A DNA stretch of 64,000 bases, taken from contig JABDBQ010000009.1 of assembly GCA_013288555.1 (NCBI GenBank), positions 1,391-65,390 of the forward strand, read 5' to 3'. The position numbers were made by a program, and so were the translations under genes. The stretch's first letter is position 1. Each line of letters begins with the position of its first letter. The stretch is from Bacteroidota bacterium (GTDB lineage: Bacteria; Bacteroidota; Bacteroidia; CAILMK01). Under the pieces are notes generated by a model, which worked only from the letters and a program-made list of their open reading frames with translations, did no database searches and was not told the origin of the DNA. This document shows, one piece after another, positions 1,931-61,116 of this stretch.

Positions 1931-2987
1931 CAACGATAAACCCATTATCGGTATCAGCATTGGCGATCCGAACGGTATCGGCCCCGAGGTTGTAATTAAA
2001 ACCCTTTCTGAGCCAAGGATCATGGATTTTTGTACGCCCATTATTTATGGATCCTCTTCAACCCTTGCATATCACCGCAAAACCATTGAAGGAGTTAATT
2101 TTAATCCATACCTGATCAGGGATATCAAAGAGATGAATCATAATCGTGTGAATCTGATCAATTGCTGGCAGGACACCATTCGGATTACCCTTGGAACGCC
2201 GAGTGAAGAGGCCGGCAAATATGCTTTTCTTTCTATAGAAGGAATGGTAAAAGATGCGAAGGCAGGATTGCTCGATGCTATTGTTACGGCGCCGATTGAT
2301 AAACATACGATACAATCAGAAACTTTTAATTTTCCCGGTCACACAGAATATCTTACCCAGGCTTTTGGCAAAACAGATTCATTGATGGTTCTTTCGGGCG
2401 AAGAATTTAAAATCGGTGTTGTAACTGGTCATATTCCATTGATTGAGGTGCCCGGCAAAATAAGCACTGAAGGTATATTGAGAAAAATTAAATTACTGCA
2501 AACCAGCCTGAGGGAAGATTTTAATATCAGAAAACCCAAAATTGCCGTCCTTGGATTAAATCCTCACGCGGGAGACGGCGGTTTGTTGGGTAAAGAAGAA
2601 ATTGATATCATAACCCCAGCTATTGAAGCGGCTAAAAAACAGGATATCATCGTATTTGGGCCTTATCCTGCCGATGGTTTCTTTGGGGCACATACTTATC
2701 ACAACTTCGATGGCATTCTTGCAATGTACCATGACCAGGGATTGATTCCGTTTAAGTTTGCGAACTTTGATACCGGTGTTAATTTTACTGCTGGATTGCC
2801 GGTTGTCCGTACTTCTCCTGACCATGGAACAGGATATGATATTGCCGGTAAAAACCTCGCCAACGAACAGTCGTTCCGTGAAGCGATATATCTTGCCTGC
2901 GACATTGTAAAAAACCGTAAAATGTATGCTGAAGTCAACAAAAATCCTTTGAAAAACCAGTTGACCCGTGAAAGGGATAATGGGTAA
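1923..2987 (+). CDS. pdxA: 4-hydroxythreonine-4-phosphate dehydrogenase
   Basis: Contains GDPNGIGPEV, LNPHAGDGG and RTSPDHGT motifs. It overlaps the pepA stop by 8 nt, which suggests an operon. Confidence 0.9.
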   Translation: MHNNDKPIIGISIGDPNGIGPEVVIKTLSEPRIMDFCTPIIYGSSSTLAYHRKTIEGVNFNPYLIRDIKEMNHNRVNLINCWQDTIRITLGTPSEEAGKYAFLSIEGMVKDAKAGLLDAIVTAPIDKHTIQSETFNFPGHTEYLTQAFGKTDSLMVLSGEEFKIGVVTGHIPLIEVPGKISTEGILRKIKLLQTSLREDFNIRKPKIAVLGLNPHAGDGGLLGKEEIDIITPAIEAAKKQDIIVFGPYPADGFFGAHTYHNFDGILAMYHDQGLIPFKFANFDTGVNFTAGLPVVRTSPDHGTGYDIAGKNLANEQSFREAIYLACDIVKNRKMYAEVNKNPLKNQLTRERDNG

Positions 2988-3067
2988 GATAGGGATAAGT
3001 GGTAAGGCGAGAGGATTTAATAAACGGGTGGTGGAATTTTGATTGAAAATAGTCTCTGCCTATTTTC

Positions 3068-3140
3068 AATCCCGTTAGGGATGACATATTGGTAGAAATT
3101 TAAAACAATTTGCAATTGAATCCCGTTAGGGATGATATAT
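3068..3140. repeat. Two REP-like hairpins upstream of the RAYT gene (3068-3098 and 3118-3140)
   Basis: Both contain the ATCCC-GTTA-GGGAT hairpin. They are reverse complements of the two copies at 3685-3758. Confidence 0.75.
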
Positions 3141-3200
3141 TTCAAATTTTACGACAGATTTATTCAGGTTTTGTATTTTTGAATTAACTCAATAATACAT

Positions 3201-3662
3201 ATGGCCAATACCTATTCTCAGGTTCATCTTCAATTTGTATTTGCTCCAAAATTCAGAGCAGCGTTAATCAATTCTGATTGGGAAGGTGAATTGTTCAAAT
3301 ACATAACAGCGGTTATCCAAAATAACAAACATAAAATGATTTGTATAAATGGAGTACAGGATCATTTGTACCTATTAATTGGCTTTCACACAACTCAGTC
3401 CATCAGTGATTTAATGTATGATGCAAAATCTTCATCCTCTCAGTGGATTAATGACAATCATTTGACAAAATCGAAGTTTACCTGGCAGGAAGGTTATGGT
3501 GTCTTTTCATATTCCAAATCACAGTTACCCGTTGTCATTCGTTATATAATGAATCAGAAAGAGCATCATAAAAAAAGGACATTTCTTGATGAATATAAAG
3601 AGATGTTGAAAAAATCAGAAATTGATTTTGAGGATCGTTTTATATTCAAGGAACCTGAATGA
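3201..3662 (+). CDS. REP-associated tyrosine transposase (IS200/IS605-family Y1 transposase-like, RAYT)
   Basis: The 153-aa sequence MANTYSQVHLQFVFAPKFR...QDHLYLLIG...WQEGYGVFSYS...IRYIMNQKEHHKK shows the Y1_Tnp fold pattern, including the YxxxQ catalytic-tyrosine helix. REP hairpins flank it. Confidence 0.8.
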   Translation: MANTYSQVHLQFVFAPKFRAALINSDWEGELFKYITAVIQNNKHKMICINGVQDHLYLLIGFHTTQSISDLMYDAKSSSSQWINDNHLTKSKFTWQEGYGVFSYSKSQLPVVIRYIMNQKEHHKKRTFLDEYKEMLKKSEIDFEDRFIFKEPE

Positions 3663-3684
3663 TAAAAATATGAAATAGAAAGAT

Positions 3685-3758
3685 ATATATCATCCCTAAC
3701 GGGATTCAAGATCTTTATTTATTTATTTTTCTACCAATATCACATCCCTAAAGGGATT
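3685..3758. repeat. Two REP-like hairpins downstream of the RAYT gene (3685-3707 and 3728-3758)
   Basis: 3685-3707 is the perfect reverse complement of 3118-3140. 3728-3758 is the reverse complement of 3068-3098 with about 3 mismatches. Confidence 0.75.
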
Positions 3759-3855
3759 TTTAGGATAAAGAATTGATTAATTGAACATGGTCAAAACCCC
3801 TTCTTTCCGAAATTCTTTCGTAAATTCGCTGTTACATGTCTTAAAGGATTGAAAA

Positions 3856-6669
3856 ATGAGTAGTATCATCGCCTATCTCGGTACCCAGTCAAGCAAGGGT
3901 CAAAAGGATTCAACCAAGCCTTCTTCCGGAAAAATAGCCTATATCGATAACAAACCTTATGAAATTGAGGAAGGTGAAACCATTCTTAAATTCATCAAGA
4001 GGAATTTCGGTAATGACCTGGTACCTACCCTTTGTGATGCGCCTAATCTCGATCCATTTGGTGCCTGCAGGGTTTGTAGTGTTGATGTTGCATTAGCAGA
4101 AAACGGACCAGCCAAAGCACAGGCTTCATGTCATACGCCCGTGATGCCGAATTCTTATATCTATCCTGAAAGTGACCGGATACTGAAACTCCGTAAAAAT
4201 ATTGTGGAACTGGTACTTACAGACCATCCGCTCGATTGCCTGACCTGTGAAGTAAATAACAATTGCGAACTTCAGGCAGTCGCCGCCAAAGTAGGTATTC
4301 GTGATGTACGATATCCTGATGGCAAAAACCATCTCGATCGAACCAAAGACCTGAGTCACCCATATATGACTTCTGATATGTCGAAATGCATCAATTGCGG
4401 CCGCTGTGTGCGTGCCTGTGATGAAGTGCAGGGACAGTTTGTGTTGAGCATGGCAGGGCGTGGTTTTGAAAGCCATATCGTAAAAGGTGCCGAGCAAACA
4501 TTTTTTGGAAGCGATTGTGTGAGTTGTGGCGCCTGTGCCCAGGCTTGTCCAACAAGCGCTATTTCAGATGTTTATGAATCAAAAAGTATTGCCGTCGATG
4601 AAAAAATAAGAACTATTTGTACTTATTGCGGTGTCGGTTGTAATCTCGAAGTAAGTGTAAAAGCCGGGAAAGTAAAATCAATCCAGGCACCATACGATGC
4701 TGATACCAACCAGGGACATACCTGCCTGAAGGGTCGTTATGCCTTTTCATTCTACAACCATCCGGATCGCTTGCGCAGTCCGATGATCAAACGTAATGGT
4801 GAATTTGAAAAAGTAAGTTGGGATGAAGCCTATGATTTTATTGCCGGTGAACTGACCCGGATTAAAGATAATTATGGTGCAGATGCCATTGGCGGACTTT
4901 CATCCGCCCGTGGACCAAATGAAGAAAACTACCTGATGCAGAAGTTTATACGTGCTGTTATCGGGACTAACAATATAGACAGTTGTGCCAGGGTTTGCCA
5001 TTCACCAACAGCCATCGGCATGCAACGTACATTTGGAACAGGCGCTGCTACTAATTCTATCCGTGATTTGAAATTGACGGACTTAATTATGGTGATTGGT
5101 GCCAATCCTACAGACGGACACCCTGTAACGGGTGCCAAGCTGAAACAGTTTGCCATGAAAAAGCCCTGTATCGTTATTGACCCGCGCAAGACAGAACTGG
5201 CACGTTATGCAAAATACCATCTTCAATTGAGACCGGGCACCAATGTAGCCCTGCTGAATATGATGTTGTATTATATTCTCAGCGAAGGACTTGAGGATAA
5301 AGAATTTATTGAATCTCGAACGGAAGGATATGCCGAATTCAAACAAAGCATCCTGAACCTTAATGTTGATGAGATGGAAAGGTTGACGGGTGTTGATCGC
5401 AACCTCGTTCGGGAAGCAGCCATTGCTTATGCTACAGCTGAAAGAGCTATGGAATTCCATGGATTGGGTGTTACAGAACACAGCCAGGGTACTTTTGCCA
5501 TAATGCTTATTGCGGATATGGTAATGATAACCGGGAATGTCGGAAAACCAGGCTGCGGCATGAATCCGCTTCGTGGACAAAACAATGTACAAGGGGCCGC
5601 TGATATGGGCTCACAACCCTACCAGGGTGCTGGGTATTTTGATGTGACCAATCCGGAATACCATAAAATGTATGAGGAGTTTTATCATGCCAAACTTCCA
5701 AATTATGTGGGTTTGAAAATACCTCAGATGTATGATGCCGCCCTGAATGGAAAACTCAAAGCCATGTGGGTCATAGGAGAGGATATGGCCCAGACAGACC
5801 CGAATACGCATCATGTGGTTAAAGCTCTTAAGAGCCTGGACCTGTTGATTGTACAGGAACTGTTTATGACCGAAACGGCCAAACTGGCTACAGTAATATT
5901 ACCGGCAGCTTCTTTCCTTGAAAAAGACGGAACCTTTACAAATGGCGAAAGAAGAATACAAAGAGTAAACAAAGTAGTTGAGCCTATTGAAGGCACCAAA
6001 AGTGACGGACAGATCATTGTAGATATCATGAACCGCATGGGTTACCCGCAGCCTGATTATCATCCGAAATGGGTATTGGAAGAAATTGCGCAGATAATAC
6101 CATTTTTTGCGGGCGTTACCTGGGATAACCTCGGTGATGATGGTTTGCAATGGCCAGTTGCTGCCGATGGTACTGATACCCAAATCCTTCATGTTGGGAC
6201 CTTTAAAAGAGGACTTGGCAAGTTTATTTATAATGACTTCAAAGAAAGCCAGGAACTGGTTCAAAACGCAAAAGAATACCCATATATCATCACCACAAAC
6301 CGCGAACTGGAACATTATAATGGCGGCACCATGACTCGTAGAACCCCGAACGTGGAAATCCTTACAGATGATGTATTGATGATAAATCCTGCAGATGCTG
6401 CGAAACATAATATAATGGAAGGCGACATGGTTTGCGTAGAAAGCGTTCGTGGCAAAGTGGATGTTATGGCAAGGATTACTGATGAAGTAAAACCGGGTAT
6501 CCTGAGTTCTACTTTCCACTTCCCGGATATCATGTTAAATAACATAACTTCCAGCATATCAGACTCTGAAGCCATGTGCCCTGAGTTTAAAGTGGTCGCG
6601 GTGAATATCAGGAAGAGCAAGGGGAAGTATAAATACAGTCAACAGGCAGCAGTCGTCAGTCAACAGTAA
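3856..6669 (+). CDS. Formate dehydrogenase alpha subunit (fused 2Fe-2S / 4Fe-4S / molybdopterin oxidoreductase), Cys type
   Basis: The N-terminal part carries a 2Fe-2S motif (CRVCSV) and several 4Fe-4S motifs (CINCGRCVRAC, CVSCGACAQACP). The molybdopterin domain has the FDH active-site context SCARVCHSPT, with a TGC Cys codon at 4996-4998. 937 aa. Confidence 0.85.
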   Translation: MSSIIAYLGTQSSKGQKDSTKPSSGKIAYIDNKPYEIEEGETILKFIKRNFGNDLVPTLCDAPNLDPFGACRVCSVDVALAENGPAKAQASCHTPVMPNSYIYPESDRILKLRKNIVELVLTDHPLDCLTCEVNNNCELQAVAAKVGIRDVRYPDGKNHLDRTKDLSHPYMTSDMSKCINCGRCVRACDEVQGQFVLSMAGRGFESHIVKGAEQTFFGSDCVSCGACAQACPTSAISDVYESKSIAVDEKIRTICTYCGVGCNLEVSVKAGKVKSIQAPYDADTNQGHTCLKGRYAFSFYNHPDRLRSPMIKRNGEFEKVSWDEAYDFIAGELTRIKDNYGADAIGGLSSARGPNEENYLMQKFIRAVIGTNNIDSCARVCHSPTAIGMQRTFGTGAATNSIRDLKLTDLIMVIGANPTDGHPVTGAKLKQFAMKKPCIVIDPRKTELARYAKYHLQLRPGTNVALLNMMLYYILSEGLEDKEFIESRTEGYAEFKQSILNLNVDEMERLTGVDRNLVREAAIAYATAERAMEFHGLGVTEHSQGTFAIMLIADMVMITGNVGKPGCGMNPLRGQNNVQGAADMGSQPYQGAGYFDVTNPEYHKMYEEFYHAKLPNYVGLKIPQMYDAALNGKLKAMWVIGEDMAQTDPNTHHVVKALKSLDLLIVQELFMTETAKLATVILPAASFLEKDGTFTNGERRIQRVNKVVEPIEGTKSDGQIIVDIMNRMGYPQPDYHPKWVLEEIAQIIPFFAGVTWDNLGDDGLQWPVAADGTDTQILHVGTFKRGLGKFIYNDFKESQELVQNAKEYPYIITTNRELEHYNGGTMTRRTPNVEILTDDVLMINPADAAKHNIMEGDMVCVESVRGKVDVMARITDEVKPGILSSTFHFPDIMLNNITSSISDSEAMCPEFKVVAVNIRKSKGKYKYSQQAAVVSQQ

Positions 6670-6675
6670 AGAGTG
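6636..6675 (+). repeat. Word-repeat tail, family B (CAGTCAnCAGTAAAGAG), overlapping the FDH stop codon
   Basis: CAGTCAACAGGCAGCAGTCGTCAGTCAACAGTAAAGAGTG resembles 41068-41101 and the reverse complement of 41647-41680. Confidence 0.6.
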
Positions 6676-6686
6676 TTTTCATTTGT

Positions 6687-7082
6687 ATGATGACAAAGCA
6701 AGATCACATCAAGTATTGGATTGCGACTGCGGAAAAGGATTGGGAAGTAGTTCGATTCCTGATAGGTGGAAATAAATTTATGTATGCCTTGTTTTTAGCT
6801 CATCTAACAATTGAAAAATTAGCTAAGGCTCTTTGGGTAAAAAATAATGTTAATAATGATCCACCTAAAATACATAATATTGCCAGCATATTGAAGCGAG
6901 CCAATGTTGAAATAAGCGAGGAACAGCGAATATTTTTCCTTCAAATGAATGATTTTCATTTGGAAGGACGTTATCCCGATTTTAGAGATATTCTTTACAA
7001 AACCTATGACAAAATAAAAACGGAAGAAATTCTGGACAATGTATTAATAAGCAAGCAATGGTTACTCAACAAGCTGCAATAG
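6687..7082 (+). CDS. HEPN domain protein (putative toxin of a HEPN/MNT pair)
   Basis: 131 aa, predicted all-helical, with a KIHNI...EGRYPD pattern typical of PF05168-type HEPN. It overlaps the following nucleotidyltransferase gene. Confidence 0.7.
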   Translation: MMTKQDHIKYWIATAEKDWEVVRFLIGGNKFMYALFLAHLTIEKLAKALWVKNNVNNDPPKIHNIASILKRANVEISEEQRIFFLQMNDFHLEGRYPDFRDILYKTYDKIKTEEILDNVLISKQWLLNKLQ

Positions 7083-7372
7083 AAGAAGTAAAAGATCTGG
7101 TTAAAGGAATCAAGGGTCTCGGGATTCATTTGAGAAAAGCCATCCTATTCGGCTCTTATGCCCGCAATGAACAAAGAAATTGGTCAGATATTGATGTTGC
7201 ATTGGTTGCTGACGAATTTTCAGGAATTGGGTTTGATGACATAGGATTGTTTGGTAAAGCGTTGGTGCATCATATCGAGATTCAACCAAGAACCTATCCC
7301 ACAGACTATTTCGAGCAAGGTGATCCTTTCATAGAAGAAATAATCAGGACAGGAATTGAGATTGAGGCTTAA
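7058..7372 (+). CDS. Minimal nucleotidyltransferase (MNT) domain protein (putative antitoxin)
   Basis: Contains the GSYARNEQRNWSDIDVALV motif (GSxxRG...DxD type polymerase-beta NTase). 104 aa, with a 25-nt overlap with the HEPN gene. Confidence 0.8.
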   Translation: MVTQQAAIEEVKDLVKGIKGLGIHLRKAILFGSYARNEQRNWSDIDVALVADEFSGIGFDDIGLFGKALVHHIEIQPRTYPTDYFEQGDPFIEEIIRTGIEIEA

Positions 7373-7376
7373 GTAA

Positions 7377-8330: not shown

Positions 8331-8364
8331 TAAACGACCAATTCACCAACTCACCATTTTCCCC

Positions 8365-8372
8365 TACCTTTG
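8365..8372 (+). promoter_or_regulatory. Candidate -7 box (TACCTTTG) for tatC-rpiB
   Basis: Matches TAnnTTTG 46 nt upstream of the tatC start. Confidence 0.3.
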
Positions 8373-8418
8373 CTGCATTATTCCCTGTTTTATTTTTCGG
8401 GAATAATACAATTATCCA

Positions 8419-9276: not shown

Positions 9277-9682
9277 CGATCACGCGGGATATCCCTTAAA
9301 AGAAACACTTAAAGTCTGGCTTCGTGAGAATGGTTATGAAGTGAACGACCTGGGTTCTTACTCGGAGGAATCTGTTGATTATCCTGATTTTGCGCATAAA
9401 CTCGCCGCTGAAGTGGCTGGCCATGAAGGCCATGAACTCGGTTTGCTTATGTGCGGCTCTGGTAATGGTGTTTGCATCACTGCCAACAAGCATAAATCCA
9501 TCCGCGCAGCATTGGCCTGGAATCCGGAAATAGCATCCCTTGCCCGTCAACACAATAATGCGAATGTACTTTGCCTGCCTGCAAGGTTTATAACGGAACC
9601 ACAAGCCAAAGAAATTGTTAATGCTTTTCTATCAGCTCATTTTGAAGGGGGAAGACATGAGAGAAGGGTGGAGAAGATTTGA
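9257..9682 (+). CDS. rpiB: Ribose-5-phosphate isomerase B
   Basis: Contains MKIVLANDHAGYPLKE, CGSGNGVCITANK and NNANVLCLPARF motifs. It overlaps the tatC end. Confidence 0.9.
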   Translation: MKIVLANDHAGYPLKETLKVWLRENGYEVNDLGSYSEESVDYPDFAHKLAAEVAGHEGHELGLLMCGSGNGVCITANKHKSIRAALAWNPEIASLARQHNNANVLCLPARFITEPQAKEIVNAFLSAHFEGGRHERRVEKI

Positions 9683-9690
9683 ATTATTTG

Positions 9691-9789
9691 GAAATTAGGC
9701 AATTAGACAATGAGGCAATTTGGGAATGAGATAATCAGACAATGAGGCAATTTGGAAATGAGGCAATTAGGCAATTAGACAATTTGTGA
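9691..9789 (+). repeat. Word-repeat arm, family A (GGCAAT / GACAATGAG words), left arm of the four-helix-bundle cassette
   Basis: GAAATTAGGCAATTAGACAATGAGGCAATTTGGGAATGAG...; its reverse complement recurs at 10199-10275. Confidence 0.7.
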
Positions 9790-10142
9790 ATGGAAGATAA
9801 GGGAAACAACATTATTGTAAACCTGACTTTTGAGTTTGCTTCAGGCATAATGGATTATTGCGATTTGCTCGCTGAGAAAAGAAATGGGTTCTTGAAAATC
9901 AACTAATGAAATCGGGTACTTCGATTGGGGCAAACGTCAGAGAAGCACAAAATGCAGAGAGCAAAGCTGATTTTATCCATAAGTTTAAAATAGCAGCAAA
10001 AGAATGTGAAGAAACAATCTATTGGCTTGAGCTTTGCAAATTCAAAAATAACCTACCGGATTGTACACATCTTTTAGACCAGATTATGCATATTAAGAAT
10101 ATTCTTAACAAAATAATAATAACGTCTAAAGCAAAAATATGA
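9790..10142 (+). pseudogene. Four-helix-bundle protein gene (23S rRNA intervening-sequence protein family), frameshifted
   Basis: The N-terminal 38 codons (MEDKGNNIIVNLTFEFASGIMDYCDLLAEKRNGFLKIN*) are in one frame. The family core (VLENQLMKSGTSIGANVREAQNAESKADFIHKFKIAAKECEETIYWLEL) is in another frame. The switch occurs in the A-rich stretch around 9876-9890. Confidence 0.7.
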
Positions 10143-10275
10143 GGCAATTTGAAAATTAGGCAATTTGAAAATTTTGCATACTGATGATTGTGCGTCAGCC
10201 AATTGTCTCATTGTCTTATTGCCTCATTGTCTAATAACTTAATTGTCTCACTTCCAAATTGCCTCATTGCCTAAT
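10143..10275. repeat. Family A word repeats: a short direct copy (10143-10172), then the inverted right arm (10199-10275)
   Basis: CCAATTGTCTCATTGTCTTATTGCCTCATTGTCTAAT...CCAAATTGCCTCATTGCCTAAT is the reverse complement of left-arm-type words. Confidence 0.7.
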
Positions 10276-10286
10276 AATTAAAAACT

Positions 10287-11288: not shown

Positions 11289-11326
11289 ATTAATCAGAGT
11301 CCTTAAATTTATAATCGATCAAAAAA

Positions 11327-11361: not shown

Positions 11362-11386
11362 ACCCCAATAGTTATATTTTATTCTT

Positions 11387-29354: not shown

Positions 29355-29510
29355 TCGGGGGTAAGGTGATAGGCATAAGGGGTTAGTAAATGCGGATTAA
29401 ATATGTGAAGAACTACTCCAAATAATTAGTCTATTATTGGGCAAAACAGAATTCAGAACAACAGGATGAATATCCTATTTTACTAATGTCTAACGCCTGA
29501 TTCCTGACCC
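29355..29510. repeat. Family C word-repeat tails of two convergent genes, forming an imperfect inverted repeat
   Basis: GGGGGTAAGGTGATAGGCATAAGGGGTTAGTAAA follows the giant-gene stop. The reverse complement of 29472-29510 is GGGGTCAGGAATCAGGCGTTAGACATTAGTAAA, which follows the accC stop. Confidence 0.5.
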
Positions 29511-30848
29511 CTATTTGATCTTAAAATCATTCATGAAAGCCGTGGTGAATTTGCCTTCAATGTAATTTTTATCATTCATGATTTGTTGATGCAAAGGGAT
29601 CGTAGTGTGTACTCCTTCAATCACAAACTCATCCAGGCAACGACGCATTTTTACAATGGCTTCATCGCGGGTACGGGCACTTACAATAAGTTTGGCAATC
29701 ATAGAATCATAATTGGGCGGAATGGTATATCCCGCATAAATATGTGAATCTACCCTGACACCGTGACCTCCGGGTTTGTGCAGGTTTAATATCTTTCCAG
29801 GACTCGGCCTGAAATCATTATATGGATCTTCAGCATTGATGCGGCATTCGATAGCACATTTTTCAGGGAAATAATTTTTCCCGGAAATCGGAATACCAGC
29901 AGCAACCAGAATCTGTTCTTTGATCAGGTCATAGCTTATAACTTCCTCCGTAACAGGGTGTTCTACCTGGATACGGGTATTCATTTCCATGAAATAGAAA
30001 TTCCGGTGTTTGTCAACAAGGAATTCAACGGTCCCAACTCCTTCATAATTTACAGAAGCTCCGGCGGCAATGGCAGCAGCGCCCATTTTTTCCCTGAGTT
30101 CAGGGGTCATAAATGGTGACGGCGTTTCCTCGATAAGTTTCTGATGCCTGCGCTGAATGGAGCAATCACGTTCTGATAAATGACAAAGAGTACCAAACTG
30201 ATCACCAACTATTTGTATCTCAATGTGTCTTGGCTCTTCAATGTATTTTTCAACGTACATGGCATCGCTGCTAAAGGCGGCTCCAGCTTCCATTTTTGCG
30301 GATTCGAAAGCTTTTTCCAGTTCACCTTCTTCCCATACCACGCGCATACCACGACCACCACCACCTGCAGATGCTTTAATAATGATGGGATAGCCGACAT
30401 GTTTGGCAATTTTTTTCAATTCTTTTAAATCAGTAACCAGCCCATCAGAACCCGGTACTACAGGAACTCCCGCTTTTTTCATGGTATCCTTAGCATTGGC
30501 TTTGTCGCCCATGGCTATGATCATTTCTGGCTTGGGTCCTATAAACTTGATCCCATGCATGCCGCATATCTCCGAGAATTTTGCATTTTCAGACAAAAAT
30601 CCATACCCTGGGTGGATCGCATCAGCGGCAGTAATTTCTGCAGCGGCCATAATGCGTGAAATATTCAGGTACGATTGAGCACTTGGAGGGGGACCAATGC
30701 AAACTGCTTCGTCGGCAAAGCGTACATGCAGGCTGTCACGATCAGCGGTGCTGTATACAGCAACCGTTTTGATATCCATCTCCTTACAGGTGCGGATAAT
30801 GCGAAGCGCAATTTCGCCTCGGTTGGCAATCAATATCTTTTTAAACAT
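29511..30848 (-). CDS. accC: Acetyl-CoA carboxylase biotin carboxylase subunit
   Basis: Contains [21 protein letters not shown] and an ATP-grasp domain with [10 protein letters not shown]. 445 aa. Confidence 0.95.
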
Positions 30849-31926: not shown

Positions 31927-32163
31927 TATAATCTAATGTGTTAATATGCTAATATGTTAATGTATTCTTATTTTCCTGAGTCCTGACTCCTGTCACCTGA
32001 TTCCTCCAAAAAGAGGGCGCAAGTTAGCAAAAGTTTGACAGATGAGAAAAAATTGCCCTAAACGTGCTATAAAGGACGTATAGATTACAGGAAATAACTT
32101 ATCCTGGATTCATTTCAACATACTTAATGTTCTCAAAAGTAGAAGATTGAAAGACTATATAAA

Positions 32164-37817: not shown

Positions 37818-37937
37818 GGGACAGGAGTAAGGCGTAAGGGATAAGGCTTAAATGGAATTTGAATTGTGGCAAGCAAAGTGACAATTGCGAGCAGACTATG
37901 ATTTTTTATAACTTGCTACAAATTTTATCTTAAAACA

Positions 37938-40900: not shown

Positions 40901-41069
40901 TTGCCGGCTTCCATCCTGGGGCTGCTACAAACTTAATGGGGATGATATAGAAAAGACGGGCGTGATTCCTGAAATTATAGTGAGAAATAATATTAAAGAC
41001 CGGACCGAAGGCAAAGACCCTCAGTTGGATAAAGCGATTGAGGAGATCATGGGGGAGGTTGGGAAATAG
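37938..41069 (+). CDS. Tricorn-like S41 peptidase (TolB-like propellers + PDZ + S41 domain)
   Basis: Has a signal peptide, repeated SPDG..IAF/DLW motifs, and a C-terminal region with a PDZ-like segment and an S41-like LILDLRYNVGG motif. 1043 aa. Confidence 0.8.
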   Translation: MSKSRFAFAAFILFAVIQISSKTDPSPNLYFASEPSLSPDGSTIVFVYENDLWTVPSDGGNASRITGMTGRESNPHYSPDGKWIAFTGRQDGNANIYVMSTDGGDIRQLTWHEGTSSVESWSWDSQFIYFTSDANNGMSSYKIALSGGTPIRLFPHYFNWPHNLVENPKSGDWYFTDSWESSRFASRKHYKGEFNPDIKSWDPKTGDYKVHTSYIGKDMWPTFDKNGDLYYVSDQENDEYNLYSLSDDKPKALTHFKTSIKQPQIDASGDKIVFEKDYQIFLYNVATGKSNAVPIRLPANNTLDLAKSFNVKGNITYFDLSPDEKKLAFVSRGELFVSDVEGKYIKQLNLEGNGRAIEVKWLADSKSLVYSKTMNGWPNLFRISADGNGKEEQLTNESRSDRSLALNKKRTFGVYLSGSDQLRKMDLGSGKSETIVTDEFWAIENTTPTISPDDQYVAYTAKRNFEDDIFLFHFADNNIQNLTNTGVSETEPRWSPDGKYIYFNADRTHPAYPYGLNNSKIYRIALDNYDKEFKADKFNKLFAKDDKPDSLNATPYPVKTNDMGDIWEELTTNEGLHEIGLVTRKKEETRAFFSSRTDGKANLLSYWSYKPFAKPEIKKIEGLEASEPEMVEGKSKLLVLTSGTIYDIDADGCKAKQIEISFEFNRNLNKEFNEMFEETWANLDENYYDKDFHGVDWDKMRTRYETFLPYVHTRANLRILINDMLGELNSSHLGFYSSGSEEGTFYGMKTFETGVVFDDNDPYKVASIVTNSPADKKDKDIKPGDVLYAVDDNIVDVTKNRDSYFSRPNFPEETELSFKRGTDIFKVKIHPESPGEFKTQLYDAWIACNQKQVDDKTGKRVAYIMMKDMGGESLHKFEIEIANEAYNRDGLILDLRYNVGGNVHDEVLDMLSRRPYLQWKYRDGKITSQPNFFPDGKPIILLVNEQTLSDAEMTSAGFQALKLGKIVGAPTYHWIIFTSAKTMVDGSVCRLPSWGCYKLNGDDIEKTGVIPEIIVRNNIKDRTEGKDPQLDKAIEEIMGEVGK

Positions 41070-41101
41070 TCATCAGTCGACAGTCAACAGTAAGGAGTTA
41101 G
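41068..41101 (+). repeat. Family B word-repeat arm (left) directly after the tricorn-like gene stop
   Basis: AGTCATCAGTCGACAGTCAACAGTAAGGAGTTAG matches the reverse complement of 41647-41680 at roughly 28 of 33 positions by eye. Confidence 0.6.
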
Positions 41102-41106: not shown

Positions 41107-41499
41107 ATGAGCGTAATCGAAACTATAGATAAAATTATAACTTTCCCTTTAGATTATCATAAACAGAATAAATCCCCGAATACGCTAATAAAAGAAAGTG
41201 GTTATTTAGAAAATTATGACAAGATAAATGAAGATGTTATTTATGAAAACCTTATATTAAATCCTGGCGCCATTAATGATTGGATTCAATTTATGTGGGA
41301 TAAACCTACTGGTTCCGGGTGGGCCTTAGATAAAAAAAATGAAGAATACATTGTTTGTTACTTTGTATCTGAGCCTTCATATAAGGAATTAGAAAAAAGA
41401 GCATTCGATGATATTGCCAAAGCCTACGCTGCTTATGTTAAAGGTGAATTAGAATGGATTAGGGGCATATATATTTCAACTTCTTCTCAATCAACTTGA
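41107..41499 (+). CDS. Hypothetical 130-aa protein enclosed by family B inverted arms
   Basis: The ATG at 41107 is preceded by TAAGGAG. No recognisable family. The track ORF start at 41038 overlaps the upstream gene and is unlikely. Confidence 0.5.
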   Translation: MSVIETIDKIITFPLDYHKQNKSPNTLIKESGYLENYDKINEDVIYENLILNPGAINDWIQFMWDKPTGSGWALDKKNEEYIVCYFVSEPSYKELEKRAFDDIAKAYAAYVKGELEWIRGIYISTSSQST

Positions 41500-41620: not shown

Positions 41621-41681
41621 CACTTCTCACCTCTCACTTCTTACTTCTCACTCTTTACTGATGACTGCTAACTGATGACTG
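41621..41681 (-). repeat. Family B word-repeat tail directly after the lutB-like stop (the right arm relative to 41068-41101)
   Basis: The sense (minus) strand reads TGA-CAGTCATCAGTTAGCAGTCATCAGTAAAGAGTGAGAAGTAAGAAGTGAGAGGTGAGAAGTG. Confidence 0.6.
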
Positions 41682-49903: not shown

Positions 49904-49917
49904 TCTGCAGACTCTTA

Positions 49918-52201: not shown

Positions 52202-52349
52202 AAATTGTCTTTACTAAGATTTTTAGGATGTGACAGATTTTAAGATTGAGAAGGCTCTCAATTAAATATTTTTATCATGAAAGAAGGATTGTAAATTCTC
52301 TGATTTTATCTCAAAATCCAGTTAATCCCATAATCCTGGTTCAGACAGC

Positions 52350-55763: not shown

Positions 55764-55803
55764 TCAGCTTATATTCTATTAGTAATGATCTTGTAAAAGA
55801 TGG

Positions 55804-55811
55804 CAAAGTTA
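55804..55811 (-). promoter_or_regulatory. Candidate -7 box (TAACTTTG on the minus strand) for leuS
   Basis: The plus-strand CAAAGTTA lies 41 nt upstream of the leuS ATG. Confidence 0.3.
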
Positions 55812-55854
55812 AGGAATGAAAACGGAAGGAGGGAAGAGCATCCTTTTTTGCGGT

Positions 55855-56367
55855 TCAGATAAATCTTGAGTCATATGCCCAATGCAGTAATGCCTGCCGC
55901 TGTCCTTTTCTACAGGAAGTATCTCCCTGTATGCAGTTCAATTCCAATTGCCTGATATGCCTGCGCATGGCATACCACCGACTTATTTGCCGCGCATCAT
56001 CATCAGTTCTTCTTCCCATATAATATCTGCAATACCATTGAAACCATCCTCTTGGGTCCTGCGGATGTATCCAACCTTTTTGCTGCCATACTGAAATAGG
56101 CTGCGATGCCTCAACGCCAAAATAATTCAGGTTTTTATCATGTCCCTTTTTACGTTCAGGTAATAATTTCGCTTCACTGAACCAATCCCGGGGAAATTCG
56201 TCAATACAATCGCGCAAATATCTTCCACCAAAAATACCGAGGGCCAGCATTTCCATAGGTGTCAGCTGTGGCTTAAAATGCGGATCAAAATTTTTACCAA
56301 CAGGTTCTGTACATGCATAGGAATAATCTTTTTGCATCTTATCATTTACGACAATTATTCTGCTCAT
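55855..56367 (-). CDS. Conserved hypothetical protein
   Basis: 170-aa ORF with a GWFQWYCRYYMGRR...RQISRW motif. I cannot name the family with confidence. Confidence 0.55.
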   Translation of the reverse strand: MSRIIVVNDKMQKDYSYACTEPVGKNFDPHFKPQLTPMEMLALGIFGGRYLRDCIDEFPRDWFSEAKLLPERKKGHDKNLNYFGVEASQPISVWQQKGWIHPQDPRGWFQWYCRYYMGRRTDDDARQISRWYAMRRHIRQLELNCIQGDTSCRKGQRQALLHWAYDSRFI

Positions 56368-56479
56368 TTTTAATAATTTCCAGCTTCAAATATAGACGAA
56401 ACAGGCAGAAAGCTTGCTGGCACCCGATTTTGAAAGGTTAATAAAATTATCAATTTATTTTTTTATTTCGTTTAAATGC

Positions 56480-56487
56480 TATTTTTG
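56480..56487 (+). promoter_or_regulatory. Candidate -7 box (TATTTTTG)
   Basis: Lies 41 nt upstream of the ATG at 56528. Confidence 0.3.
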
Positions 56488-56527
56488 CCATCTTAATTTT
56501 TTAACAACCTTTAAAATTCTCACATTC

Positions 56528-56983
56528 ATGAAAAAAATCTTACTATTTTCTTCCCTTGCAGTTTTGGTAATTAGCTTTTCATCATCTTGTAAAAAGGCAA
56601 CGACCAACAATCCGGTTTCAGTGACTAATTCAATGTCTGCTACAATAAACAGTATAGCATGGACCGCAGGGACGGTTACCGGCACCACTAACTCAGGCAC
56701 ATTATTTATTTCAGGAATAAACTCAGGTAGCGGAACCGGGATATCAATGGAGATGCCTTCGAGTACGACAGCAGGAACCTATACTATTTCAAATTCTTCT
56801 GTGAATTATGTTATCGGATATTCAAGTTCAACAAGCTCAAGCATTATGACTGCAGGTACACTTGTAGTGAGTTCAAATGCTAATAATACCATTTCAGGTA
56901 CATTCAATGGCACACTCACTGATCCGGTTAGCATGGGTACTTCAACCGTTAGCAATGGTACTTACACTGTTAAATATCAGTAG
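56528..56983 (+). CDS. Small lipoprotein (paralog of 57148-57612)
   Basis: MKKILLFSSLAVLVISFSSSCKK lipobox. It shares the ...SM(S/T)AT(I/V)...AW.A......GT...ISG...SGTF.G..T pattern with the next gene. Confidence 0.65.
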   Translation: MKKILLFSSLAVLVISFSSSCKKATTNNPVSVTNSMSATINSIAWTAGTVTGTTNSGTLFISGINSGSGTGISMEMPSSTTAGTYTISNSSVNYVIGYSSSTSSSIMTAGTLVVSSNANNTISGTFNGTLTDPVSMGTSTVSNGTYTVKYQ

Positions 56984-57022
56984 TTCAATGTTTTAATTTA
57001 AATATAAAAATTTATACATGGA

Positions 57023-57062
57023 TGCCCGGATATCTAAAAGATTCCGGGCATTTTCTTTTTTA
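57023..57062 (+). terminator. Rho-independent terminator
   Basis: TGCCCGGA (57023-57030) pairs with TCCGGGCA (57043-57050), followed by TTTTCTTTTTT. Confidence 0.65.
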
Positions 57063-57147
57063 AGATTTACAAGTGCAACCTTACATGAAATATTAAGAAA
57101 TTGTAAATTCGCAGCGTTTCATTCACTCATTAATAAAACTACAACGC

Positions 57148-57612
57148 ATGAAAAAGATTTCAGGATTGCCAATCCTCGTATTCCTTTGTGCCGGAATTTT
57201 CGTTTCCTGCACCAAAACCACCAGCCCAACCAGCAACTCAACTCCAAATAATAGTGTTAAGTCATCTATGACTGCCACTGTTGATGGAAACGCCTGGGTA
57301 GCCAGTAATTTTAGCGGAGCCAATATCAGCGGAACCCTGCAGATTGAAGGTGCTGCTTCCGATGGAAGCCAGATTACATTGGGCATTCCAGCTTCATCTA
57401 AAACGGGTTCTTTCGCTGCCGGAGGAACAAATCCTTACCAGGCTACGTACCAGTCAGGGGTAACTTACTGGCGTCTTATAACCGGTACTTTTAAAATTAC
57501 ATCTATTGGAAGCAATGCAGTTTCAGGAACATTTTCAGGGTCATTTACCAATACCACAACCAATGCGACTATGAATATTTCAGGCGGGGTATTTACTTCG
57601 AGTTATCAATAA
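57148..57612 (+). CDS. Small lipoprotein (paralog of 56528-56983)
   Basis: MKKISGLPILVFLCAGIFVSCTK lipobox. 154 aa. Confidence 0.65.
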   Translation: MKKISGLPILVFLCAGIFVSCTKTTSPTSNSTPNNSVKSSMTATVDGNAWVASNFSGANISGTLQIEGAASDGSQITLGIPASSKTGSFAAGGTNPYQATYQSGVTYWRLITGTFKITSIGSNAVSGTFSGSFTNTTTNATMNISGGVFTSSYQ

Positions 57613-57637
57613 GATTGACAGAGAATAACTTATGATT

Positions 57638-57671
57638 ACACCCGGGTAAATATTTTATCCGGGTGTTTTTG
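57638..57671 (+). terminator. Rho-independent terminator
   Basis: ACACCCGG (57638-57645) pairs with CCGGGTGT (57659-57666), followed by TTTTT. Confidence 0.65.
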
Positions 57672-58004
57672 TTTATAAGCGTATAGATTGTGTTGGGTTT
57701 TTTCGTAGTAGATTGAATTAGCTTAAGCCTCGCTGGTTTTTCAAAACTTGCGAGGTTTTGCTGAAAGTGAAACAAATTCAAAAATATTTTCAGTTGTAAT
57801 GTATTGAAATAATTAAAGTTAAAAAATATTTTTACAAATCACCCACCCACTTTGGCACTTCGCTATATATGTATGTAAAAGCCGATGTGATAATCCCGAA
57901 GAAGTCGGGACAAGTTGTGCTAATATGTTGATGTGCTAATTGGCTTACGGCGAATAGCGATCGAGAAGTAAATCATGAAATCATTTTATCCTATAAATCC
58001 TGAT

Positions 58005-58107
58005 TCAGACAAAATGCAAAAGATAAACCGGCCTTTAAGGCCATTCTGGATTGATCTTTTATTGTTATCTATTGATAATCGTCAACGAGTTACGTGTATT
58101 TAATTGA
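58005..58107 (+). repeat. Copy 1 of a ~100-nt direct repeat containing a 29-codon mini-ORF (58014-58103)
   Basis: AGACAAAATGCAAAAGATAAACC...TCTGGATTGAT...TGTTAT...GTCAACGAGTTACGTGTA. About 70 percent identical by eye to 58300-58402. Confidence 0.5.
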
Positions 58108-58299
58108 AAATTAAAATATTAAAAAACTAAAAAATTGAAAAAACATCAATATCAATTCAGAATAGTCAAAAAGGGCGTTTTCTGGAATTTATCAATCAGA
58201 AAACAACAGAAACAGCCTTCGTCAAGACTATGGCGTTCAAAGAAAGGTCGTTTTATGGCATACTGTTTAACGCTTTCCATTCTGGTTTCACACTTTCGA

Positions 58300-58402
58300 A
58301 AAGACAAAATGAAAAAGATAAACCAATGTTTTTTGCTAGTCTGGCTTGATATTTCCCTGTTATTGCCTGATACTTGTCAATGAGTTATGTGTAAATTATT
58401 TA
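58300..58402 (+). repeat. Copy 2 of the ~100-nt direct repeat containing a 24-codon mini-ORF (58309-58383)
   Basis: AGACAAAATGAAAAAGATAAACC...TCTGGCTTGAT...TGTTAT...GTCAATGAGTTATGTGTA. Confidence 0.5.
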
Positions 58403-58620
58403 ATATCAACTGTTTAAAAAATGGAAAATAAATTCCCTGTTATAACAGGAAGAACAGGCCAGAATGGTCTGAAATGCCTGTCCCGCCTGTCCCGACCTAC
58501 ACGGGGATTTCCCGGGATGGGTTTTGTTTGGACAGATTATTATTGCGAGCGTGAAAGTCCGAAGCAATTGTTTCACAATTCCGGCAAACCGCAAAACCCA
58601 AAGCCATTCCCTATCTTTGC

Positions 58621-59895
58621 ATGAATAATATGATTTTAAACAGCTTCATCATCATAGGCATTTGCCTTTTTTTTGGTGCCTTCTTTTCGGGGATGGAGAT
58701 TGCCTATTTGAGCGCCAACCAATTGAGGGTGGAACTTTTGAGCAAAAAAGGCTTCCTGCCCTCACGCATATTTTCATTTTTTTACAAACATTCTTCCCGT
58801 TTTTTTACTGCAACACTAGTTGGAAATAATATTGCCATTGTACTTTACAGTATTTATTCGGCAAGCCTTATTACTTTTTTTTTAACAACCTATACGGGCA
58901 TCAGTCCCGATCACAGGAATTTGATTTTATTTATTCAGACGGTGTTGAGCAGTTTCGTGCTGTTGATCGTAGGTGAGTTTTTGCCAAAGATCTTTTTCAG
59001 GGCCAGGCCAAACCTGATGCTTAATATATTGGCATTGCCATTTGTGCTTTTTTATTGCCTGTTATATCCTTTGGTGATTATCATTGTTTTCCTTGCCCAA
59101 CTTATCCTCAAGTCAATTTTTAAGATGGAATTTTCGCCACAGTCCCCGGAATTCACCAGGCACGACCTGTTTCACTATGTAAGCGAAAGCAGCCCTGTTG
59201 AGGAGGAAAAAGAAATGGACGTGGATAAAGAAATATTCCGCAATGCCATTGAATTTCCCTTTGTTAAAGTGCGGGAGTGCATGACCCCGAGGACGGACAT
59301 CGTAGGCGTGGAGCAAAAGGACAGCATTGCCCATGCAAAAGAATTGTTTATCGAAAGCGGACATTCCAAATTGCCCGTATATCGTGAAACAATAGACCAT
59401 GTAACGGGCTACATCCACCTGGTTGACCTGTATGCCAATCCTTCGAAAATTGAGGAAATAGTTATGCCGATCCTCATAGCTACAGAAGCCATGACGGCTA
59501 CCGAGCTATTAAGGCAGTTTATTGAAAAACACAGGAGTATTGCGCTTGTCGTTGACGAGTTTGGAGGGACTTCCGGTTTAATAACCATGGAGGATATTAT
59601 AGAACAGATAATAGGAGAGATTGAGGACGAACATGATGTTGATGACCTTATTGAAAAGAAAATAAGTGAAAGCGAATATTTGTTTTCGGGCCGGCTTGAA
59701 ATAGACTATCTCAATGAAAAATATGCCTTTAATCTGCCGGAAGGTGATTATGAAACGCTGGGTGGTTTGATATTTTTTATCAACCAGAATATTCCAAAAG
59801 AAGGAGATGTCATCAGTTTGTCCCCTTTCAAATTCAGCATTATTTCTACTGACCAGGCCAGGATAAATGAAGTAAAAATGAAAATTTCGGTTTGA
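58621..59895 (+). CDS. CNNM/HlyC-CorC family protein (DUF21 + CBS pair + CorC_HlyC; GldE-like)
   Basis: Has an N-terminal 4-TM DUF21 with GEFLPK, a CBS pair, and a C-terminal transporter-associated domain. Confidence 0.8.
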   Translation: MNNMILNSFIIIGICLFFGAFFSGMEIAYLSANQLRVELLSKKGFLPSRIFSFFYKHSSRFFTATLVGNNIAIVLYSIYSASLITFFLTTYTGISPDHRNLILFIQTVLSSFVLLIVGEFLPKIFFRARPNLMLNILALPFVLFYCLLYPLVIIIVFLAQLILKSIFKMEFSPQSPEFTRHDLFHYVSESSPVEEEKEMDVDKEIFRNAIEFPFVKVRECMTPRTDIVGVEQKDSIAHAKELFIESGHSKLPVYRETIDHVTGYIHLVDLYANPSKIEEIVMPILIATEAMTATELLRQFIEKHRSIALVVDEFGGTSGLITMEDIIEQIIGEIEDEHDVDDLIEKKISESEYLFSGRLEIDYLNEKYAFNLPEGDYETLGGLIFFINQNIPKEGDVISLSPFKFSIISTDQARINEVKMKISV

Positions 59896-59981
59896 GAATA
59901 TACTTTGATTGCCCTCATGGCCTGCCGAACATCTGAAACCATTACCTTTGCCACGGATTTTAATATTTTGACAAATTATAT

Positions 59982-61055
59982 ATGAAAATTGCAATTATAA
60001 CAGGTTCTGCAGGACTTATCGGAAGTGAAGCTGCGGTATTTTTTTCGGATAAATTTGATTTGATCGTTGGTATTGACAATAACCTCAGACAATATTTTTT
60101 CGGTGAAGAAAGTTCAACGGACTGGAATAAAAAGCGCCTTGAAAATCAGTTAACCAATTACCGGCATTATGCGGCAGACATCAGGGATGTTTCCCAATTG
60201 GAATCCATTTTTAAGGAATATGGTTCAGATATTAAACTGGTTTTGCATACGGCGGCACAACCCAGTCATGACTGGGCAGCTAAGGAGCCTTTTACAGATT
60301 TCAGCGTAAACGCGACAGGGACGTTAAATATGCTTGAAATGAATAGGTTATATTGTCCTGAAGCTGTTTTTATTTTTACATCTACCAATAAAGTATACGG
60401 AGACAATCCAAATTTCCTTCCGCTTATAGAAAAAGAAACCCGCTGGGAAATAGATGAATCGCATCCTTATTTTAAAGATGGGATTGATGAGTTGATGAGC
60501 ATAGACCAAACCAAACATTCACTTTTTGGTGCATCGAAGGTGGCAGCGGATGTATTAGTACAGGAATACGGGAGATATTTTGGAATGAAAACCGGGGTGT
60601 TCCGGGGCGGATGTCTTACGGGTCCAAACCATTCTGGTGCGCAACTTCATGGATTTCTGGCATATCTCATGAAATGTGCTATCACCGGGAATCATTATAC
60701 GATATTCGGGTATAAGGGAAAGCAGGTTCGTGATAATATTCATAGTGCCGATCTTGTAAACATGTTCTGGCATTTTTACCAGGCGCCAAGGCCGGGAGAA
60801 GTCTATAATGCTGGTGGTGGCAGGTTCGCCAATTGCTCTATGATTGAAGCCATTGCAATATGTGAAGAAATCTCAGGAAAGAAAATAGATTACAGTTATA
60901 GTGAGACAAATCGAATCGGTGATCACATCTGGTATGTAAGTGACCTTTCCAAATTTATTTCACATTACCCTGACTGGTACTGGAAATACAATCTTGAGGA
61001 TACCCTGGTTCAGATTCATGACGGCATAGCGGCGAGGCTTGAAACAGCGAAGTAA
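59982..61055 (+). CDS. NAD-dependent epimerase/dehydratase (extended SDR, CDP-paratose-2-epimerase-like)
   Basis: Contains the [10 protein letters not shown] Rossmann motif and TSTNKVYGD. The expected YxxxK position reads FGASK. Confidence 0.8.
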
Positions 61056-61116
61056 GTGCGAAGAGCGTAGAAAGAGAGCGGCTTCGCACTCCACTTTATC
61101 GCACTCCGCTCTTCTT
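61056..61116. repeat. Family D word-repeat tails (GTGCGAAGAGCG) of two convergent genes; probably acts as a bidirectional terminator hairpin
   Basis: GTGCGAAGAGCGTAGAAAGAGAGCGGCTTCGCACTCCACTTTATCGCACTCCGCTCTTC; the arms are mutually complementary. Confidence 0.5.

Follow-up and report, generated by a model that had tools for sequence, protein, structure and literature searches.

Strand-oriented heptamer and octamer arrays at gene ends of a Bacteroidota genome belong to a described class of intergenic simple-sequence repeats

Why do so many unrelated genes of one bacterium end in a short word that is repeated several times over? The question is raised by a 64,000-nt stretch of a Bacteroidota genome (NCBI GenBank assembly GCA_013288555.1, contig JABDBQ010000009.1, here C9, positions 1391-65390), which is referred to below as the window. 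An initial annotation, made from the letters of the window alone, had listed eleven loci at which low-complexity tails accompany genes, and all eleven are present where it had placed them. Written in register, the window tails resolve into imperfect tandem arrays with a unit of 7 or 8 nt, most of which are reported by Tandem Repeats Finder (TRF); the iterated words of that annotation are real and can be restated precisely as 7- or 8-nt tandem units present in about 4.3 copies. We extended the analysis to the whole assembly (2.84 Mb in 102 contigs, 39.7% GC, 67.5% complete) on a gene map of crude, non-overlapping open reading frame (ORF) calls (2212 ORFs, 85% of the genome coding). Tandem arrays were collected with TRF and compared with a null in which the genome was shuffled in 200-nt blocks. 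Oriented word families were collected under a strict definition with regular expressions (at least three perfect degenerate units; 161 arrays genome-wide), and a dictionary of 12-mers provided an independent check of orientation and a metaprofile. Throughout, X denotes the purine-rich, C-poor, stop-bearing strand of an array reading out of the neighbouring ORF, and rcX the complementary orientation.

Arrays of both periods are frequent and are concentrated at gene ends. TRF reported 348 arrays of period 7 and 275 of period 8, where the block-shuffled genome yielded 54 and 82, and 238 of 337 period-7 arrays (71%) lie in the 15% of the DNA outside ORFs. A start within 15 nt of a stop codon was found for 102 period-7/14 and 64 period-8/16 arrays; TRF arrays with periods of 9-12 showed no association with stop codons across the whole genome. 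The strict families are also strongly oriented: within 20 nt of an ORF stop they occur 64 times in the sense and five times in the antisense direction (p=4e-14), the corresponding numbers adjoining ORF starts are 1 and 20, and those inside ORFs are 1 and 10. By the 12-mer metaprofile, sense words occupy positions +0 to +19 nt past the stop in 5.4% of genes over a background of 0.05-0.1%, and antisense words peak at +40 to +100 nt past the stop (1.9%) and at -40 to -1 nt before the next ORF (2.0%). These numbers bear out the original claim of sense-strand tails that begin at or overlap stop codons, since the genome-wide analysis that it called for found both word enrichment at stops and a strand preference. 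Its account of the layout is incomplete, as antisense copies occur systematically near the start of the next gene.

A flush sense tail is carried by approximately 150-166 ORFs (7%, or about one in fourteen). The distance from stop to array has a median of 3 nt and is mostly between -3 and +10 nt, the stop codon itself lies within the array in 45% of tails, and stop triplets of the tail keep the phase of the ORF stop, recurring at +7, +14 and +21. The tails consist of A.37, T.27, G.26 and C.10, whereas 3' regions without arrays have G.17 and C.17. The tails comprise at least ten word families, including GGCGTAA, GAAGTGA, AATGATC, CAGGAGT, CAGTCAA, AAATTTG, AATTACG, AATGAGGC and GAGCGAA, which agrees with the earlier description of purine-rich, C-poor families recurring at unlinked loci. 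No GG or CC is present in the unit of 212 of the 348 period-7 TRF rows, and the AATGATC, AAATTTG, CAGTCAA and AATTACG families follow the same position and strand rules though they have no G-tract.

Three features had escaped the initial annotation, namely arrays that mirror each other, a fixed number of units, and a link to cassettes containing genes of the family PF05635. Neighbouring arrays less than 130 nt apart are arranged as X..rcX in 67 cases and as rcX..X in seven, with X..rcX spacers typically of 16-40 nt and a second spacer class of 390-450 nt that holds small genes. Where both neighbouring ORFs measure 150 aa or more, arrays occupy 29.7% of convergent gaps (left half, 31 plus and 3 minus; right half, 6 plus and 30 minus), 16.6% of tandem ones and 13.8% of divergent ones, which are the longest gap type. 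Polarity is strong in convergent and tandem gaps but not significant in divergent ones (Fisher p=0.30), and we set aside a purely geometric account in which the repair of a double-strand break, for instance, would leave X at the left and rcX at the right edge of every gap. The median distance of sense arrays from the stop is 3 nt in tandem gaps; for antisense arrays it is 72 nt, and these stand a median of 20 nt ahead of the next maximal ORF. Tandem gaps contain sense arrays only (44), antisense arrays only (25), sense then antisense (22) or antisense then sense (1). Array lengths have modes at 30-31 nt for period 7 and 34-35 nt for period 8, corresponding to approximately 4.3 units in both, and the four-nucleotide shift between the modes is not producible by the TRF score threshold. 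Perfect four-unit runs exceed five-unit runs in every family (18, 29 and 3 runs of three, four and five units in family F1).

A separate observation concerns the motif GGCTGRCRC, which has 95 matches in the genome. About half of these immediately adjoin an X array on its distal side, where the complementary GCGYCAGCC sometimes follows 13-35 nt beyond, and the motif looks like the inner boundary of repeat elements. Examples are found in the region of window positions 10175-10200 (C9, minus strand), at C17:12805-12813 and at C14:45830.

The tails are members of a described class, the intergenic heptameric and octameric simple-sequence repeats, which include the short tandemly repeated repetitive sequences (STRR), the long simple-sequence repeats (LSSR) and the repeats of Rehm, and the initial statement that they could not be placed in any described element class was mistaken (Mrazek 2007; Rehm 2015, PMC4692102; MacGregor 2015, PMC4679880). 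Rehm reported strongly intergenic heptamers in Xanthomonas (GGGAATC) and Nostoc PCC 7120 (GGGGA(C/T)T) that lie 0-50 bp from the stop on the coding strand, overlap with the stop included, or 0-50 bp upstream of ORFs on the non-coding strand, that occur in inverted pairs, prefer four units and are under-represented between divergent ORFs (PMC4692102). At a given gene pair the repeats differ in length and sequence among close relatives, they are not generally tied to mobile elements, and their function was given as unknown; most Xanthomonas repeats are transcribed, and transcripts start or end at repeats capable of forming a G-quadruplex (G4) more than at non-G4 controls (PMC4692102). Our assignment follows because position, strand rule, four-unit preference and scarcity in divergent gaps all match that report, and the excess over shuffled sequence and the non-coding bias were found as well. 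Both sets thus have 7-nt units, the same stop/start strand rule, stop overlap, inverted pairs and four units, and the arrays studied here differ in comprising at least ten families, in also using 8-nt units, in mostly having no G-tract and in occurring in the phylum Bacteroidota. A G-tract in each unit, as in the G4 subclass of Rehm, was not found, which places the tails in the broad class and outside that subclass. What is new is that the rules hold for words without G-tracts and, as a lead, that array abundance tracks PF05635 gene number across the class. Since the families without G-tracts keep both the strand rule and the four-unit preference, they argue against a G-quadruplex rationale for either feature.

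Other repeats of the class show a partial likeness. TAACTGA direct repeats occur in marine Beggiatoaceae, cyanobacteria and five Bacteroidetes, and other heptamer arrays in Gramella, Aequorivita and Elizabethkingia (MacGregor 2015, PMC4679880). The forward strand of TAACTGA stops all three frames and some sets overlap the stop of the upstream gene; in BOGUAY the repeats are mostly a few nucleotides upstream of a start codon, forward, in 2-6 copies of one word, and cold-shock-type single-strand binders were proposed as their readers (PMC4679880). Mrazek (2007), as summarized by MacGregor, found heptamers to be the commonest long simple-sequence repeats of prokaryotes and proposed slippage as the cause (PMC4679880). 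With the TAACTGA repeats our arrays share intergenic tandem heptamers, a stop-bearing strand and stop overlap, and they differ in being anchored at stops, in their reverse orientation before starts and in their many words; TAACTGA is not among the 45 commonest period-7 units of the genome, which sets the arrays apart from that class. The STRR heptamers of heterocystous cyanobacteria, reportedly described by Mazel et al. in 1990 (CCCCAGT, TTGGTCA and CAACAGT), are likewise dispersed intergenic tandem heptamers; CAGTCAA of our genome is a rotation of CAACAGT, and AATGATC is a near complement of TTGGTCA. To our knowledge, STRR have mainly been described as fingerprinting targets, without the stop-anchored strand rule that is found here in another phylum. 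The repetitive extragenic palindromes (REPs) and bacterial interspersed mosaic elements (BIMEs) of enterobacteria resemble the tails in that REPs are short, lie between genes, often immediately behind a stop codon, and are co-transcribed with the gene that precedes them; Liang, Rudd and Deutscher are said to have noted in 2015 that many REPs lie no more than 15 nt from a stop codon. Each REP is a single imperfect palindrome of conserved sequence with a cognate REP-associated tyrosine transposase (RAYT), whereas the tails are tandem, mostly unpaired and of many families.

Could the tails be terminators or arms of hairpins? A GC stem followed by a T-run was detected in 6.8% of flush-tail 3' regions, 12.9% of array-free 3' regions and 3.7% of coding controls, and a terminator scan of the window from 26 to 46 kb gave 18 sites compared with 17.8 expected, none of them at a gene end. 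By this detector, genome-wide and in that interval, the tails are unlike Rho-independent terminators, in agreement with the initial view that they are not classic terminators. At 80 other Bacteroidota loci the same detector found terminators downstream of accC in 69% and over all genes in 28.5%, in a comparison that mixes different, unmatched gene sets. In the two array-rich genomes, this one and the G197 sample described below, approximately 12-13% of 3' regions have an intrinsic terminator, about half of 28.5%. RNAfold gave z-scores below -2 for 37% of tails, as compared with 28% of 3' regions free of arrays. Of eight window tails, six are no more stably folded than shuffled sequence, the structured ones being those of accC (z -2.4) and of the DUF4159 side of a convergent pair (z -2.5), and the repeat is unpaired in the predicted folds of the pdxA, M1 peptidase and lutB tails. 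No inverted partner accompanies 94 of 144 flush tails, and approximately 18 of 46 close pairs join different families, so that no stem is possible. With two thirds of the tails unpartnered, partners of mixed family and control-like z-scores, we rejected as a general rule the idea that tails are the 5' arms of terminator-like hairpins; partner counts and fold scores also distinguish them from self-folding palindromes of the REP/BIME type. A likeness of the words to pieces of the anti-Shine-Dalgarno complement (TAAGGAGGTGATC) was dropped because only some families fit. Rfam and tRNA scans of the 64-kb window found no Rfam family and no tRNA.

The effect of the tails on reading frames is modest. 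The share of sequences with every frame closed within 30 nt is 33% for tails, 7% for array-free regions, 15% for composition-matched shuffles and 27% for reverse complements, the number of frames closed being 2.09 in tails and 1.73 in the composition-matched shuffles. Stop triplets number 0.63 per unit. This value, together with the modest excess over shuffles and a stop-poor family in G197 (GTTATGG), weakens the idea of an all-frame stop pad in which every unit holds a stop.

Comparison with relatives indicates that places are kept and words are replaced. The accC protein of this genome is at most 77% identical to that of any other Bacteroidota in the genome collection, an exact-protein look-up of efp gave no match, and the metagenome scan reached relatives of at most 81% amino acid identity. 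Three copies of GGNRTAA have 66 matches here and almost none in 40 relatives, seven of them of the same family, and the particular words are on this evidence lineage-specific. Two metagenome contigs (L101 and L102), each encoding an M1 peptidase of 80-81% identity, have arrays in corresponding positions that are built of different words. The lutB stop of L101 is followed by GAATTAA GAATTAG GAATTAA and the M1 stop of L102 by four copies of AAATTTG; TCAGGAG and CAGTCAA arrays are also present on L101. The M1 peptidase gene of L101 adjoins lutB (39-nt gap, L101:11780-11818), and the tricorn gene and a 130-aa ORF that separate them in the window are absent.

The phenomenon is widespread in the phylum. 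A generic five-unit pattern found tens to hundreds of heptamer arrays in many families in a survey of 400 Bacteroidota, whose "backwards pattern" control is an invalid null because it also matches heptamer arrays. G197 represents another family of the class, of which 400 kb were examined in regions picked where arrays had been found. Its sense to antisense ratios at stops are 7:0 for TAAAGCC, 7:0 for TGAACGC and 11:3 for GTTATGG, and its pairs are X..rcX only. The GTTATGG family is flush yet stop-poor on the sense strand, which suggests that stop codons do not organize the arrays and come along as a by-product that is tolerated or useful. In a further Bacteroidota genome (G270:C2:1376325-1491477) we observed many (CCCTAAA)n arrays of up to approximately 20 units, the unit being the complement of the plant-type telomere unit TTTAGGG.

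PF05635 is an orphan family known from rRNA intervening sequences (IVSs) and diversity-generating retroelements. The assembly contains six PF05635 genes, each enclosed by an inverted X..rcX pair of arrays and each situated between protein-coding ORFs, none of the six being in 23S rRNA. Each cassette uses a different word family for its arms (TAGTTAG, GAGCGAA, AAATTTG, CAGGAGT, AATGAGGC or AATGATC), and some cassettes have an inner GGGCTGACGC / GCGTAAGCCC boundary. In the window, the only cassette is at 9686-10281 and the other tails are gene-less. The arrangement resembles the ORF-bearing 23S IVSs of Coxiella burnetii and Leptospira in placing a PF05635 gene in the loop of a heptamer-array stem; it differs in that the cassettes stand between protein-coding genes instead of in helix 45 of 23S rRNA and in that most arrays are gene-less. 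The C. burnetii gene lies within an RNase III-cut stem, with three to four tandem heptamers, of strain-variable number, just upstream of the ORF; that IVS was proposed to be a remnant of transposition, and the Xanthomonas PF05635 homologue is a homopentamer (Warrier et al. 2016, PMC4990558). A literature search on PF05635 with inverted repeats returned nothing useful. PF05635 genes occur in 323 of 401 sampled Bacteroidota, and in 99 genomes of the same class their matches, counted to 11 at most, correlate with heptamer-pattern matches (Spearman 0.67; 0.53 on 19 family means, p=0.02). Median pattern matches rise from 2 in genomes without PF05635 through 14 and 80 to 167 in those with 8-11 PF05635 matches. 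This correlation is a lead and not a result. Only 12 of the 161 strict arrays flank PF05635 genes, so cassette arms alone cannot explain the numbers.

What might such arrays do? We tentatively favour, at well below an even chance, a platform at gene ends that acts at the RNA level, in which a four-unit array would be read by a putative multimeric factor for transcript-end marking, processing or insulation. By analogy with Xanthomonas, the tail would be transcribed as the first ~30 nt of the 3' untranslated region; it would remain mostly single-stranded and offer a fixed number of units to a putative multimeric nucleic-acid-binding factor, which once bound would mark the ends of transcripts or process them and would insulate adjacent genes from each other. 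X and rcX of one family would additionally pair into a long stem, as around PF05635 genes and in the 23S IVS. A unit cap common to two periods and many words is hard to obtain from free slippage, which makes a multimeric reader the simplest explanation and is why we favour the platform, and a tail that closes frames quickly could abut or replace a native stop harmlessly. Also in its favour are the scarcity of canonical terminators, the strand rule (64:5 at stops, 1:20 at starts, 67:7 for X..rcX), the fixed module size, stops inside 45% of tails with stop triplets phased to the ORF stop, the native C-terminus of accC, the retention of place while the word changes in relatives of ~80% identity (lutB GAATTAA, M1 AAATTTG), the same layout with other words in the independent lineage G197, and the bracketing of 6/6 PF05635 genes with a gene count that tracks arrays (rho 0.67). 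Rehm's repeats follow the same strand and position rule, with transcript ends more often at G4-capable copies (PMC4692102). Several observations weigh on the other side. Ten unrelated-looking families fit poorly with a single sequence-specific reader; arrays are found in 13.8% of divergent gaps, where transcripts do not end; only about a third of flush tails are partnered and about 40% of close pairs could form no stem; tail fold z-scores resemble those of array-free 3' regions; the terminator comparison draws on unmatched gene sets; the G197 arrays are much longer and more variable, so that the four-unit rule is not universal, and its GTTATGG tails are stop-poor; and the PF05635 correlation is uncorrected for GC content and genome size and only partly corrected for phylogeny.

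It is almost as likely that the arrays are neutral or selfish by-products of 7-8-nt slippage, driven toward gene ends by deletion bias and held by purifying selection in the stop-supplying orientation, with no function. Heptamers are the commonest long prokaryotic simple-sequence repeats, with slippage proposed, according to MacGregor's account of Mrazek 2007 (PMC4679880), and words turn over rapidly between relatives at a constant place, 45% of tails hold the stop, sense arrays are nearly absent within ORFs (1 vs 10), divergent gaps contain arrays too and the tails have no special folding. Free slippage would not predict the sharp four-unit ceiling at both periods, nor a handful of word families recurring at unlinked loci, nor the antisense rule at gene starts (1:20; 44:9), where arrays threaten no reading frame; the stop excess over shuffles is modest (2.09 vs 1.73) and one flush G197 family is stop-poor. 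We consider it unlikely that the tails are arms of mobile or once-mobile hairpin elements, REP/BIME-like or derived from PF05635 cassettes that lost the gene, with solo tails as decayed halves. Such an origin would suit the 67:7 polarity, the spacer classes of 16-40 and 390-450 nt, the six cassettes with their occasional inner GGGCTGACGC / GCGTAAGCCC, the absence from L101 of the small ORF between the tricorn and lutB tails, and the Coxiella IVS, in which the same gene family sits in a stem with tandem heptamers (PMC4990558). It is opposed by the solo state of most flush tails (94/144), the mixed families of ~18/46 close pairs, arms that differ between cassettes, and the general independence of Rehm's repeats from mobile elements (PMC4692102); no transposase, target duplication or identical copies were seen, and no search aimed at a RAYT-type transposase was made. 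Slightly less likely still is the more specific proposal that the arrays are cognate binding or processing sites of PF05635 (S23p/Avd-like) homopentamers, each paralogue having its own 7- or 8-nt word, in a genome-wide system of gene borders (transcript-end marking or insulation) widespread in Bacteroidota, cyanobacteria and Xanthomonas. It is suggested by each gene lying between arrays of its own family, by the same families supplying gene-less tails, by unit numbers that top out near four to five and by gene counts that track arrays (rho 0.67; 0.53). Selection for translational backstops appears improbable. Since 7 and 8 are not multiples of 3, per-unit stops would close all frames and catch read-through or frameshifted ribosomes, which fits the larger share of tails (33%) than of array-free regions (7%) in which three frames close within 30 nt, the tail stops in register with the ORF stop, and the property of TAACTGA noted by MacGregor (2015, PMC4679880); it is countered by 0.63 stops per unit, by closure in 27% of reverse complements and 15% of shuffled tails, by FDH CAGTCAA units that are translated through and by stop-poor GTTATGG, and it leaves antisense arrays before genes and the four-unit limit unexplained. 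Least probable, in our view, are directional Rho insulators, in which the C-rich, G-poor complement reading into a gene would load Rho on incoming transcripts (antisense at 3' ends, read-through at 5' ends) and outgoing transcripts would meet the G-rich strand. Polarity at both 3' and 5' gene ends, an outgoing strand with G.26 and C.10 and the few classic terminators are consistent with this; AATGATC and AATTACG have no C/G skew, CAGTCAA and TAAAGCC of G197 have the opposite skew, and 30 nt is short for a Rho loading site by the measure of the rut sites of E. coli.

Any explanation must accommodate three constraints, namely rules that hold without G-tracts, a conserved place with a replaced word, and abundance that rises with PF05635 count. 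Gene-end heptamer arrays occur in several phyla, and we know of no accepted function since their first cyanobacterial description in about 1990. If a reader protein or a role at transcript ends proved true, the arrays would represent a common, unrecognized gene-boundary signal in Bacteroidota; at present they are a clean further example of a known puzzle.

Within the window, the 12-mer dictionary places sense-oriented arrays 0-16 nt from the stop at eight loci (pdxA, FDH, rpiB, the giant gene, accC, M1, tricorn and lutB). The pdxA tail (2974-3014, plus strand) reads GGGATAA TGGGTAA GATAGGGATAA GTGGTAA GGCGAGA GG, the TAA of the gene (2985-2987) being that of the second unit. The FDH tail (6635-6669, plus) is a CAGTCAA-type array of 4.7 units (CAGTCAA CAGGCAG CAGTCGT CAGTCAA CAGTAAA). 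This tail lies inside the ORF and is translated as the last ~11 codons, and the ORF stops at the first unit reading CAGTAAA. Directly 3' of it are two small overlapping ORFs (131 and 104 aa; 6687-7372), the first HEPN-like by eye, which may be a HEPN/nucleotidyltransferase pair. The rpiB tail (9686-9786, plus) is an octamer array of 11.5 units (AATTAGGC/AATGAGGC) and forms the left (X) arm of the cassette. The right (rcX) arm (10201-10281, minus) is the same octamer family inverted and ends 6 nt before the next ORF; between the arms lies a broken PF05635 gene of the 23S-rRNA-IVS-type four-helix bundle with one internal TGA (9867-10109, C9:11257-11499, plus).

The tail of the 4019-aa giant gene (29355-29385, plus) reads GGGGTAA GGTGATA GGCATAA GGGGTTAG. 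In the accC tail (29480-29513, minus; TAG GGGTCAG GAATCAG GCGTTAG ACATTAG TAA) the stop codon is the first unit, and the C-terminus of the protein (…FMNDFKIK) ends level with the closest orthologues, so that here at least the array starts at the native stop and the gene is not truncated. A GTCAGGA-type array in sense orientation lies 48 nt upstream of efp (31974-32005, minus), which is the rare class near 5' ends (9 sense vs 44 antisense in tandem gaps). The M1 peptidase tail (37818-37851, plus) has 4.1 units (GGGACAG GAGTAAG GCGTAAG GGATAAG GC), which are unpaired in the predicted fold. The tricorn tail (41068-41093, plus) reads TAG TCATCAG TCGACAG TCAACAG TAAGGAG, and the lutB tail (41621-41681, minus) passes in phase from CAGTCAT/CAGTTAG (3.6 units) into GAGTGAG/AAGTAAG (4.6 units) and has no fold (z +0.58). 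Between these two tails is the 130-aa ORF (41108-41499). Two tails of the initial annotation remain: that of leuS (52310-52349, minus) is a weak octamer of three units (GGATTATG GGATTAAC TGGATTTT), under the TRF threshold and the least convincing locus, and that at 61056-61118 is a convergent inverted pair in which GAGCGAA/GTGCGAA-type arrays of the epimerase (plus) and DUF4159 (minus) genes point at one another and pair into a hairpin (z -1.45 on the plus and -2.53 on the minus strand).

Two other repeat types accompany the arrays. An element of approximately 100 nt, present in at least eight copies and all of them outside the window (C2:18430-18560, and on C2, C6, C8, C10, C12, C14 and C32), consists of CTATATATGTAYATAAAA, a GGCGTAA-type array, GTGGCTGGCGC and then GAGATAAAAATAAAATGCAAAAGATAAACCAGC, and could be a miniature inverted-repeat transposable element or a small RNA gene. 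At window positions 3060-3135, 3' of the pdxA tail, the small hairpin ATCCCGTTAGGGATGA occurs twice, 55 nt apart, as a separate type of dispersed repeat, and similar hairpins (CCCGAATAAGTCGGGACAAG) flank arrays on C70.

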